A stretch of DNA of 27,396 nucleotides from a virus. Lineage: Duplodnaviria > Heunggongvirae > Uroviricota > Caudoviricetes. This document shows positions 1 to 3,162 of this stretch, one piece after another. Position numbers and translations under genes: made by a program. Numbering within the stretch: position 1 is the stretch's first letter; the number at the start of each line of letters is the position of its first letter. The notes under the pieces are model-generated. The model did no database searches. It worked only from the letters and a program-made list of their open reading frames with translations, and had not been told where the DNA came from. The DNA is taken from the IMG/VR virus record IMGVR_UViG_2541047887_000006. The stretch is one strand, 5' to 3'.

Positions 1-334
1 TCAGCCAACAAATTTAGCAACAAATACAGCAACCGCCGCCGTGAAAATGGTTGTGCATACTGGCACAATAATGCCACTCCAACGCCACTTCGTATTATCA
101 TCAACCTTGTCAAACCGCCGATTCATCTCATCCATAATCTTGTCAAAGCGTTTATCCATCGCTTCGGTAAGCTCACCCTTCAGGCTGTTAATGTCTGATT
201 TGAGCTGCTCTTTCAGGTGAGCTGTATCAGATTTAAGCTCACCTTTCAGATTCGCAATATCGCATTTAAGATCACCTTTCAGATGAGCAATGTCTGCTTT
301 GAGCTCACCTTTCACCTCACCAACATCGGCTTTG
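1..334 (-). pseudogene. 3' portion of an IS911-interrupted gene: coiled-coil protein with five 11-aa tandem repeats and a C-terminal hydrophobic anchor; function unknown
   Basis: ORF track 1..315 (its GTG at 315 is just the first start after the IS). Frame is continuous with 1588..1784 once IS911 and one GTT copy are removed. Stop TGA at 3..1. C-terminal hydrophobic stretch IIVPVCTTIFTAAVAVFVAKFV. Confidence 0.6.
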
Positions 335-335
335 G
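171..335 (-). repeat. Five imperfect 33-bp tandem repeats, in frame, encoding 11-aa units (K-x-D-I/T-A/G-x-L/V-K-G-E/D-L)
   Basis: Units read directly at 171-203, 204-236, 237-269, 270-302, 303-335, sharing the core gctcacctttcag...atttga. Confidence 0.85.
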
Positions 336-367
336 TTTGAAGTGGTCAACAAAAACTGGCCACCGAG

Positions 368-1186
368 TTAGAGTTTTTTCCAGTATCGATTTTCCGATTC
401 GTTTGGTGGTAACCCACCATTATATTCGTGCGGTCTTAGTGCGCTGTAATATCCAACGATATAGTCCGTTATTGCGTGAGCTGCATCGCTGAAGCTTACA
501 TAGCCCGTCGCCGGCACCCATTCGTTCTTCAGACTCCTGAAGAAGCGCTCCATTGGGCTGTTATCCCAGCAGTTTCCACGCCGACTCATACTCTGCCTGA
601 TCCGGTATCTCCACAGTAACTGCCGGAACTGCCTGCTCGTATAATGACTGCCTTGATCGCTGTGGAACATCACCCCGACGGGCTTACCACGGGTTTCCCA
701 TGCCATTTCCAGTGCTTTCATGGTAAGCCTGCTGTCCGGCGAGAACGACATGGCCCAGCCCACTGGTTTTCTTGCGAACAGGTCGAGAACAACGGCGAGG
801 TACGCCCAGCGCTTACCCGTCCAGATATAGGTCACATCACCGCACCACACCTGATTTGGCTCGGTCACGGCGAACTGCCGTTCAAGGTAGTTAGGGATAG
901 CAACATGTTCATGACCACCACGTTTATACCGGTAAGTCGGCTGCTGACAGCTGACCAGCCCCAGCTCTTTCATGAGTCTGCCAGCAAGCCAGCGCCCCAT
1001 CTGGTAGCCTCTCTGGGTTGCCATTGTGGCGATGCTTCTTGCTCCGGCAGAGCCGTGGCTGATGCCATGCAGTTCAAGTACCTGGCTGCGTAATACAGCC
1101 CGTCTGCCGTCTGGCTTTTCAGGACGGTTTTTCCAGTATTTGTAGCTGCTGCGATGGACCCCGAACACATGGCAGAGAGTGGCCAC
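368..1186 (-). CDS. IS911 OrfB frame (DDE catalytic domain, InsO-like), normally made as an OrfAB fusion by -1 frameshifting
   Basis: ORF track 368..1186, 272 aa. The orfB frame is open upstream to the slippery site at 1258-1264. Confidence 0.9.
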
Positions 1187-1212
1187 AGGATAACGCGCCC
1201 TGAGTTTCCCGA

Positions 1213-1515
1213 TTATCGAGAACTGTTCAGGGAGTCTGACATCAAGAGCGCGGTAGCCTTTTTTAATATTTCATTTTCCATTTCAATACGTTGTAGCTTT
1301 TTCCTGAGCTCACGGATTTCAATTTGTTCCGGGGTAATAGGGGAGGCTTTTGGTGTTTTTCCCTGCCGCTCATCACGTAATTGTTTCACCCATCGCGTCA
1401 TTGTGGAAAGGCCGACATCCATAGCGCTGGCTGCATCTGCCACGGTGTAATTCTGGTCAACGACCAGTTGAGCGGATTCGCGTTTAAACTCTGCGCTGAA
1501 ATTTCTTTTTTTCAT
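1213..1515 (-). CDS. IS911 OrfA (HTH / leucine-zipper transposase regulator, InsN-like)
   Basis: ATG at 1515-1513, stop TAA at 1215-1213, 100 aa. ORF track 1213..1551 with internal Met chosen. Confidence 0.9.
1258..1264 (-). other. A6G slippery heptamer (AAAAAAG on minus strand) for programmed -1 frameshifting orfA to orfB
   Basis: Plus strand reads c-tttttt at 1258-1264. It sits in the ...EILKK codons at the end of orfA, where IS911 frameshifting is established. Confidence 0.75.
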
Positions 1516-1587
1516 TATGGCACCTGTGTTGTTCTGAGGTGAGCATATCACCTCTGTTCAGGTGGCCAAATTCAGTAAACCACTTCA

Positions 1588-1784
1588 GTTGAGAGGTTTG
1601 TAGTGCGTTCAGCAAGCGTCGCAAGGTCGTTTCTTGTTAGCGATAAATCACCTTCGAGCCGCTCAATTCGCCTTTCAAGTTTATCTGACATTCCGCCTCC
1701 ACTATCACCGCCTCCCCCATCGAAAGAATTGCCAATGTCCTCACGAATAAGGGTTATGCCATGCTCACTTTTAGCATATGCCAC
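1588..1784 (-). pseudogene. 5' portion of the IS911-interrupted coiled-coil gene
   Basis: GTG start at 1784-1782 preceded by GGGAGGG 7 nt upstream (minus strand). The track ORF 1572..1784 reads 5 codons into the IS end before stopping. N-terminal region has a Gly/Asp-rich stretch GGGGDSGGG. Confidence 0.55.
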
Positions 1785-2183
1785 TCAGATTCCCTCCCAA
1801 ACTATATATCCTTTGTCTCTTGCCCAACAAACAACTGTGTGGGCTGTATATGTGGATGTGAAGCCGCAATAAGAACATGACACTTCATACCGAGTATTGT
1901 AGATGTTAATGGGCTCGTTCTCCTTGTGTATGGGAGTGACATATTCCCAATCATTTGAATCATCATAATCATCAAGTTCAGGGTCTGTGCCGTGAACAAC
2001 CGTATGTGGAATAAACAAATCTGGGCGCCCACACGAGAGACAAGAGGTTCTGGCTCCTCTATCTTTGAGGAATTGAATAAATAATTTGGGCGAAATCTGT
2101 TGCAGAACCTGCAAATGCCCACGTTCATTATCATTAAGAGACCTGTCTGCATATGGAAAATCATCAAATTTAAGAGGCTTCAT
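1785..2183 (-). CDS. Hypothetical Cys-rich protein (two CxxC motifs, CLSCG and CSYCG); AT-rich cargo gene translationally coupled to int
   Basis: ORF track 1785..2198. ATG at 2183 has GGAG 9 nt upstream; the start lies 11 nt inside the int 3' end. Stop TGA at 1787-1785 abuts the next gene's GTG. Confidence 0.5.
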   Translation of the reverse strand: MKPLKFDDFPYADRSLNDNERGHLQVLQQISPKLFIQFLKDRGARTSCLSCGRPDLFIPHTVVHGTDPELDDYDDSNDWEYVTPIHKENEPINIYNTRYEVSCSYCGFTSTYTAHTVVCWARDKGYIVWEGI

Positions 2184-3162
2184 ATAAGGCATCTCCAAGG
2201 GGATTAAATCTCACCGCATCCTGCAGGTAATCCGGCGCAAGATGGGCATAAATCATCGTTGTCTGAATCTTTGCGTGCCCCAAAATTTTCTGGAGGGTCA
2301 GAATATTGCCGCCGTTCATCATGAAATGACTGGCGAAGGTGTGGCGCAGCGCATGAACAGCCTGGCCGTCAGGAACATCAGGTGCGACCGTTTTGATGAC
2401 ATCGCGAACCAATGAATAATCCAGCGTCGGAAACACCAGTTTCCCGCCCCGTTTTTTGATCTTTTCAAACAGGCTTTCAGAAATAGGAACGGTACGGTTT
2501 TTGCTGTTCTTCGTTTTTGAAAAAGTGATTCGACAATGAAGAACACGGCGCTGCTCCAGTGCCGCTACCTCGCCCCATCGCGCCCCGGTCGACAGAAGGA
2601 TTTCGACAGCCAGCCGTTCATCGGGATTTTCAGCCAGTGCATCCAGCAACTGAACACATTCAGACTTACTCAGGTATCCCATTTCGCGCTCGTTAACCTT
2701 CATTCCTTTAAGGCCTTGAACGGGGTTATCGTTAAGAAAATGGCCGGATGAGATGAGTGCGGTAAACATCGCGCTTAACGCCCCAATCTCTCGATTTATG
2801 GTGCTGGGCTGTATCCCCTGCTCTATCCTGGACACACGTAGCTCGGTGAGCATCGTTGTATTAAGTTTATGCACGCACGGGTCATCCATTGCTTCACTCA
2901 AGCGCAGCAATTTAAGGCGCGTGTTATGCCCTGACTTCATTAGCTGGCCGTGGTATTTCCACCACAAGTCAATAAGCACTGACAGAGGACGGCGATCAAT
3001 AGAGTTTCCTTTCCACTCATTGTTATGCTGTTGCGCCAGCACCCACCGCTCATATAAAACTGCATCCGATTTCGTTTTAAATTTTTTGCGAATGCGTTTG
3101 CCTTTACGCCCCTCAGGGCGCATGTCAAGAAGATACCCTCCCGGAATTGATTTTATGCTCAT
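2170..3162 (-). CDS. int: P2-type tyrosine integrase
   Basis: ORF track 2170..3312; internal ATG at 3162 matches the P2 Int N-terminus (MSIKS... vs MAIKKL...). Catalytic motifs ARWGE, HALRHTFAS, IYAHL. Lies directly downstream of C as in P2. Confidence 0.93.
   Translation of the reverse strand: MSIKSIPGGYLLDMRPEGRKGKRIRKKFKTKSDAVLYERWVLAQQHNNEWKGNSIDRRPLSVLIDLWWKYHGQLMKSGHNTRLKLLRLSEAMDDPCVHKLNTTMLTELRVSRIEQGIQPSTINREIGALSAMFTALISSGHFLNDNPVQGLKGMKVNEREMGYLSKSECVQLLDALAENPDERLAVEILLSTGARWGEVAALEQRRVLHCRITFSKTKNSKNRTVPISESLFEKIKKRGGKLVFPTLDYSLVRDVIKTVAPDVPDGQAVHALRHTFASHFMMNGGNILTLQKILGHAKIQTTMIYAHLAPDYLQDAVRFNPLGDALYEAS

Follow-up and report, generated by a model that had tools for sequence, protein, structure and literature searches.

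A repressor-linked gene pair next to the integrase of P2-like prophages: a candidate phage-exclusion module, interrupted by an IS3-family element

Background

In every lysogen, the active genes are those that share transcription with the prophage repressor. The best-known case of such cotranscription is rexAB of phage lambda, a still incompletely understood system in which superinfecting phages are excluded through depolarisation of the membrane and whose membrane component RexB has four transmembrane (TM) helices. Here we describe a gene pair, g1-g2, at one end of the DNA of the IMG/VR virus record IMGVR_UViG_2541047887_000006 (Caudoviricetes), a stretch of 27,396 nucleotides hereafter called the window. 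The pair follows the repressor gene C and the integrase gene int of a P2-like prophage, and its second gene is split in the window by an insertion sequence (IS). Like rexA-rexB, g1-g2 is a two-gene accessory unit placed directly after the immunity repressor, in lambdoid Enterobacter phage ENT1 in exactly the order cI-g1-g2, and its same-orientation position downstream of the repressor recurs in P2-like, 186-like and lambdoid contexts. In both units a soluble protein is teamed with a membrane protein, and neither unit is essential to the phage. They differ in that g1-g2 has no sequence or family match to rexA-rexB, that g1 is a 15-kDa zinc-ribbon protein, and that g2 possesses one C-terminal TM helix and a long stalk.

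The stalk of g2 recalls the DUF1640/CCDC90-like proteins (MCUR1/CCDC90B), in which a beta-layer of the consensus [aliphatic]-A-T-K-[polar]-[D/E] at the stalk marks trimeric alpha/beta coiled coils (Hartmann et al., PMC4786415). The shared feature is a helical stalk that opens with a beta-layer [aliphatic]-[A/S]-T-K-x-[D/E] and leads to a TM helix at the C-terminus. In g2, however, some 30 disordered residues with a Gly/Asp linker stand in place of the N-terminal head domain, the stalk contains variable repeats of 11 residues, and the profile score falls below the gathering cut-off. No link of DUF1640/CCDC90 to prophage function was found in the literature.

In a 2026 survey of 1511 att-delimited P2-like prophages, the interval between int and the attachment site (att) was a minor defence hotspot with 3% of the systems (PMC13586616). 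The count comprised systems that DefenseFinder or PADLOC recognises, whereas g1-g2 is not recognised by PADLOC. Two studies on P2-like diversity and regulatory regions leave the genes after int unmentioned, and the DefensePredictor paper contains no description matching the pair. The P2-like Vibrio phage K139 likewise carries a gene with an exclusion function, glo, which presumably lies alongside int and the control genes. It differs from g1-g2 in encoding a single, sequence-unrelated periplasmic protein, as opposed to two proteins that are both predicted to be mainly cytoplasmic. glo has been called the family 'immunity gene' (PMC4870250).

We propose, with a rough probability of 0.4, that g1-g2 is a lysogen-expressed, membrane-tethered module for phage exclusion or abortive infection (Abi). 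The points in favour of exclusion are the position in the immunity operon, the defence context, evolutionary features usual in accessory genes, the conserved pairing of g1 with g2, and the trimer and operon signals.

Position of the gene pair and attachment site

On the coding strand the order is C, int, g1, g2. The start codon of g1 (ATG at 2183) lies 11 nt inside the int coding sequence (14 nt including the stop codon), and g2 starts with GTG at 1784 directly after the g1 stop codon (TGA, 1787-1785), with GGGAGGG 7 nt upstream; both junctions had been described correctly in the first-pass annotation of this DNA. Translational coupling of g1 and g2 is inferred from the overlapping or abutting stop and start codons alone.

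The g2 stop codon forms the very end of the window and attL consequently lies outside it. The intact cassette, restored by removal of the IS, measures 930 bp and is present in full length, at 99-100% identity, in 11 complete Escherichia coli genomes. The prophage of E. coli TUM1880 and O103:H2 12009 resides between btuC and ihfA; compared with the empty site of K-12, its 25-bp att core, AAAGAAAAAAGGCCGCAGAGCGGCC, is the ihfA terminator hairpin, with copies at L001:5867-5891 and L003:3212-3236. From the g2 stop codon to the end of the attL core there are 109 bp in IS-free relatives, so that both g1 and g2 are inside the prophage, between int and the att core. A gene for a Hok/Gef family toxin is found between ogr and attR of the TUM1880 prophage (L004:5248-5388), outside the window.

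The same block occupies other sites: C-int-g1-g2 is found at yhbY/ftsJ in Salmonella and adjoins alr in other enterobacteria, and a 32-kb extrachromosomal P2-like genome from Klebsiella carries the pair between int and the late genes D/ogr. One of two readings offered in the first-pass annotation, that of cargo carried between int and attL, is borne out by the position of attL, by the extrachromosomal copy and by the at least three integration sites at which int-adjacent cassettes, as it had proposed to look for, occur in other P2-like prophages. The anatomy of the module and its status as phage cargo can be regarded as well established.

Read on the coding strand, the att-core hairpin and the TTTTTTCTTT that follows it score as an intrinsic terminator, and no promoter-like site was detected on that strand between C and g2 in an IS-free relative. 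Terminator and lack of an internal promoter together fit a single C-int-g1-g2 transcript, as judged from the layout. In the lysogen, the attL copy reads as a terminator that closes this unit just upstream of btuC.

Conservation and distribution of the pair

In every context examined g1 is followed by a g2-type gene, with stop and start codons abutting or overlapping. The order is C-int-g1-g2-att in P2-like prophages and cI-(cargo)-g1-g2-int in 186-like ones, and in ENT1 the pair stands directly after a LexA-type (S24) cI. A Pantoea prophage possesses the pair in a moron position, between tail and baseplate genes. One copy at a prophage end is located beside a ThsB-like TIR protein (6e-43) and the PADLOC candidate PDC-M50A, and some lysogeny modules with the pair also contain a NACHT/nuclease gene. 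g1-g2 is a conserved unit, with its place behind the immunity repressor in phages of the P2-like, 186-like and lambdoid kinds.

Other cargo was noted in the corresponding intervals of related prophages. It consists of an HNH_5 protein with a 252-aa open reading frame (ORF), neither matching PADLOC, between int and att in L080:4972-6976, and of a 704-aa NACHT/NA-iREase2 protein between int and att in L082:6187-8301. The 186-like prophages of Raoultella/Klebsiella carry a Flk_N-domain protein (209 aa) and a DUF8087 protein (80 aa) between cI and g1 (L043:4074-4973); the two have no match in PADLOC.

The pair is rare. Some version of the cassette was found in 39 of 5426 E. coli genomes, each time in the chromosome, and the pair is present in 4 of 50,697 phage records, most P2-like phages being without it. 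A scan of genome contigs for related loci with the close alignment confirmed none. The GC content of the cassette without the IS is 44.0%, compared with 49.0% in int, 47.9% in the early region and 55.6% in the late genes; the cassette is thus AT-rich relative to the late genes, as had been noted from the sequence, but only modestly so relative to its neighbours, and 'markedly' overstates the difference. Both genes are under purifying selection. Together with this selection and the low GC content, repeat-number variation, mosaicism and rarity make up an evolution of accessory type.

Mosaicism follows a pattern. Across 62 loci, the type of g1 (A, of 132 aa, or B, of 166 aa) goes without exception with the type of the peptide at the g2 tip, whereas stalk and TM variants of g2 occur with both g1 types; the recombination joint of the module is the Gly linker. 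The linkage fits a tip peptide that is matched to its own g1, and proximity alone could give the same pattern.

The g1 protein

g1 (positions 1785-2183, minus strand; ATG at 2183, TGA at 1787-1785) is intact in the window and encodes 132 amino acids. The protein is acidic (pI 5.1), lacks a hydrophobic segment and, in agreement with what had been read from the sequence before, is Cys-rich with two CxxC motifs, at residues 48-51 and 103-106. It matches phrog_4293 (2e-30), a family of unknown function in PHROGs, but no family in Pfam, NCBIfam or PADLOC.

The g1 family is small, comprising 79 clusters in an exhaustive profile search of 1.84 billion representatives. An alignment of 68 members shows C48, C51, C103, C106 and W120 to be invariant and a helix motif ITPxLFxxFLxxKG to be conserved ahead of the first knuckle; both CxxC knuckles of a zinc ribbon are accordingly conserved family-wide. 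A Pfam scan of all 68 members returned scattered generic Zn-ribbon matches only, and the g1 profile found nothing below E 0.49 among the PDB sequences. The AlphaFold2 (AF2) model of g1 is confident (pLDDT 88.9), yet a structure search with it gave no significant fold match. The ratio of nonsynonymous to synonymous substitution rates (dN/dS) is 0.07-0.30. On these features g1 is a soluble protein of acidic character in which the four Cys make up a predicted zinc ribbon.

Interruption of g2 by an IS3-family element

The first-pass annotation took positions 1-2198 for a two-gene cassette. It overlooked a complete IS of 1250 bp (338-1587, minus strand), which breaks g2 and accounts for 57% of that interval. 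The element is ISEc52/IS911-like and belongs to the IS3 family, as seen from terminal inverted repeats of the TG..CA kind (27 nt, at 338-364 and 1561-1587), a flanking 3-bp duplication GTT (335-337 and 1588-1590), and two genes, orfA (1213-1551, minus strand) and orfB (368-1186, minus strand), which carry an A6G slippery motif for frameshifting.

The insertion leaves two g2 fragments on the minus strand. The 5' fragment (1588-1784, codons 1-66) comprises the variable N-terminal peptide, the Gly-rich linker and the first helix, runs into the IS and terminates after 4 foreign codons (ORF 1572-1784). The 3' fragment (1-337) contains the remnant of the beta-layer (..KAD), the stalk of 11-residue repeats, RFDK, the TM helix and the stop codon (1-3); it matches phrog_9415 (3e-15) and, under the threshold, the Pfam family CCDC90-like (6.7e-6). 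Because g2 is divided in this way, no anchored protein can be made from it in the window: g2 is a pseudogene and the module is non-functional here. Deletion of the IS and one GTT copy fuses 1588-1784 in frame with 1-337 and restores a g2 of 176 amino acids.

The close relative E. coli M1/5 (L046, NZ_CP053296.1) matches window positions 1-1587 at 100% identity, and its next matching base is window position 5026. Compared over window positions 1-8774, it possesses the identical IS, annotated as an ISEc52-family transposase, at the identical junction, and is missing 1588-5025, i.e. the 5' part of g2, g1, int, C and early genes. The gap resembles an adjacent deletion mediated by the IS, which would have stranded the prophage, unable to excise. 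As M1/5 shares the IS junction and has the deletion in addition, the window represents the state preceding the deletion.

Three further independent IS3-family insertions were found in g2, and none was seen in g1. The IS911-like element of L077:3724-4972 (CP044151.1) is 94% identical to that of the window, has the same orientation, is inserted 11 bp further into g2 and is flanked by its own 3-bp duplication, ATG. Strain 300709 contains an IS629-like element within the TM region of g2, and one IMG/VR contig an IS3-family insertion at the start of the TM region. The two related elements inserted 11 bp apart point to a possible target hot spot for this IS group. That IS hits are confined to g2 may reflect a cost of g2, hot spots for IS targeting or plain dispensability, between which the numbers are too small to decide. 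As a firm argument for toxicity of g2 the insertions were rejected, there being four events, two of which are related elements 11 bp apart.

The g2 protein

The restored g2 begins with a peptide of about 20 residues, MAYAKSEHGITLIRED, followed by a Gly/Asp-rich linker. The stalk opens with the conserved MSDKLERRIERLEGD and the beta-layer motif LSTKAD (residues 64-69), continues with four to five 11-residue repeats LKGELKxDIAx and then RFDK motifs, and leads into a C-terminal TM helix (KD19 2.43 at residues 154-172), after which four residues remain. The membrane-anchored coiled coil with a Gly-rich N-terminus that had been recognised from the sequence therefore stands for the restored 176-aa protein, but in the window it is disrupted. 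Absence of a signal peptide and the basic KWRW directly preceding the TM helix place the stalk, by expectation, in the cytoplasm.

The repeats correspond to a 33-nt tandem repeat at window positions 210-333. Products of the g2 family are 112, 123, 134, 145 or 156 amino acids long, in steps of 11 residues due to changes in repeat copy number, and the length of the stalk is polymorphic between strains through the copy number of the 33-nt repeat (proteins P0010-P0047).

A beta-layer motif is present in every g2 partner examined, with variants including YATKED, FATKSD and LSTKTD, and LSTKAD of the window agrees with the published DUF1640 consensus (PMC4786415). Against the Pfam family PF07798 (CCDC90-like), g2 scores 26.5 bits (E 6.7e-6), which is under the gathering cut-off of 33.5; the match covers only profile positions 68-171, the stalk and TM helix, and leaves the head (positions 1-67) unmatched. 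Some close homologues of g2 carry a precomputed PF07798 match, and close relatives are labelled 'DUF1640/CCDC90 family protein' by NCBI. We accordingly speak of a DUF1640-like stalk, as suggested by motif and profile, and not of a demonstrated member of the family. A search against the PDB sequences yielded coiled-coil noise only. The AF2 model of the g2 monomer is poor (pLDDT 53) and was used for secondary-structure boundaries alone; residues 1-31 are disordered in it and the helix breaks at the beta-layer.

PGAP begins g2 at an internal ATG (MSDKLERR...), resulting in a shorter product. The long start is favoured by four features of the N-terminal extension: it stays open, with indels in frame, in all variants down to about 50% identity; every variant places a start codon at the g1 stop (TGAGTG, TAAAATG, TAAGTG, ATGA, TAATG); the N-terminal motif is still recognisable at about 50% identity; and the Gly/Asp-rich linker is kept in all distant partners. 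Selection on the extension is weak (dN/dS 0.3-1.0, as against 0.11-0.46 in the remainder of g2), as expected of a linker. The internal ATG has a GGAGG of its own, so that both forms of g2 may be made. An interpretation of the Gly-rich stretch as nothing but the Shine-Dalgarno sequence of this ATG was rejected, because the frame and the Gly/Asp linker persist in distant partners.

Possible function

If g1-g2 is an exclusion module, both proteins would be made in the lysogen along with the repressor. g2 would trimerise into a stalk that is anchored in the inner membrane and faces the cytoplasm, and its tip peptide would dock or regulate g1. The pair would then exclude superinfecting phages in the way of RexA and RexB, with a cytoplasmic sensor and a membrane effector, either by abortive infection through membrane damage or by a block of DNA entry. 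Its more specific form, a previously unrecognised exclusion or Abi system in which a zinc-ribbon sensor is docked via a swappable tip on a trimeric, tail-anchored stalk, an analogue of RexAB built of unrelated parts, is put forward a little more tentatively than the general proposal.

Several observations weigh against exclusion. No defence phenotype is known for either family. PADLOC-DB 2.0.0 (2023) holds no match for g1, and for g2 only low-scoring coiled-coil matches to ZorA, LmuB and LeoBC; in PHROGs both proteins are of unknown function. Homology to RexA or RexB is absent in Pfam, NCBIfam, PHROGs and PADLOC, and g2 has one TM helix compared with four in RexB. Pc-driven transcription and translational coupling are deduced from how the sequence is laid out, and the monomer model of g2, at pLDDT 53, is poor. 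The link between g1 type and tip peptide may just reflect their spacing of about 100 nt. Finally, a chromosomal copy in Rahnella belongs to no prophage or defence island that can be recognised.

This chromosomal copy suits a lysogenic-conversion factor that alters host physiology, e.g. by membrane or stress adaptation as in tail-anchored coiled-coil proteins. Such a role would also agree with the lysogen-expressed positions of the pair, with g2 as a tail-anchored cytoplasmic coiled coil and with the failure of PADLOC defence models to match either protein. Homology to characterised stress proteins is absent, however, the pair is nearly always phage-borne, in or beside defence-rich spots, and it is rare and patchy within species. 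We consider conversion unlikely.

A toxin-antitoxin or addiction module that stabilises the prophage, with g2 as a small membrane toxin and the upstream, coupled g1 as its antidote, is more doubtful still. The layout is antitoxin-like, the gene of an acidic protein lying upstream of that of a small membrane protein and being coupled with it; the four independent IS insertions found all strike g2 and spare g1; M1/5 lost g1 only once g2 was already broken; and the Hok/Gef gene lies near attR in the same prophage type. Given the gene lengths, four of four hits in g2 are not significant (about 0.1 by chance), and the two related elements 11 bp apart point to a target hot spot and not to selection. 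No similarity to known toxin-antitoxin families was found in Pfam, NCBIfam, PHROGs or PADLOC, and an elaborate stalk of 100 residues with a conserved beta-layer would be unusual for a simple membrane toxin.

The neighbourhood of int and attP invites a role in the cycle of the phage itself, as an accessory of integration or excision control, DNA entry or lysis timing (an XhlA/holin-like helper). A zinc ribbon could bind nucleic acid, and g2 has weak PHROG matches to holin, XhlA-like hemolysin and spanin families (E 0.006-0.02), although these are at the noise level of coiled coils. The presence of the pair in just 4 of the 50,697 phage records and its absence from most P2-like phages, its occurrence far from int between tail genes and after a lambdoid cI, and the persistence of IS-broken copies in otherwise intact prophages render this role improbable.

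That g1 and g2 are host genes or a separate genomic island merely abutting int, the second reading of the first-pass annotation, has its sole support in a cassette GC below that of the late genes and is ruled out, since attL maps in the empty-site comparison 109 bp beyond the g2 stop and not at 2170-2200, the pair travels with the prophage to at least three chromosomal sites, an extrachromosomal phage genome has it between int and attP, and no housekeeping-gene matches were found for g1 or g2.

Phage exclusion remains our preferred reading. At least three lineages of temperate enterobacterial phages have put this compact, conserved pair after the repressor. If the pair does exclude phages, it would bring in a new type of effector, in which a tail-anchored beta-layer coiled coil bears a modular tip, within a two-gene system simple enough to dissect. 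The g1 and g2 families are uncharacterised and absent from PADLOC, whereas accessory cargo of the lysogeny operon or of the int-att hotspot is already known as a kind. The pair is a good lead for a new exclusion system, yet one among many unassigned prophage modules.

Other features of the window

All features within positions 1-3556 are on the minus strand. The P2-type tyrosine integrase gene (int, 2170-3162, minus strand; Pfam Int_N 2e-28, Phage_integrase 6e-20) encodes 330 amino acids with the PGAP start; its ORF stays open back to 3312 and its stop codon is at 2170-2172. PGAP names it 'phage integrase' on identical DNA. The C-type immunity repressor gene, encoding a helix-turn-helix (HTH) protein, is located at 3212-3520 (minus strand; Pfam HTH_3 and HTH_31), following the PGAP annotation in L001. 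An Rfam scan of positions 1-5000 detected no RNA families.

The window also possesses a complete defence system on the plus strand (8902-12272, GC 41.6%), which is composed of IetA (AAA ATPase, PADLOC 1e-77) and IetS (S8 protease, 1e-51). Two more ORFs, of 108 and 187 amino acids, are found between it and the portal gene, at 12294-12620 (minus strand) and 12801-13364 (plus strand); neither matches Pfam or PADLOC. With gpA (5956-8721) on one side and the portal gene (13379-14425, minus strand) on the other, IetAS and the two ORFs occupy the classical old/tin hotspot of P2.

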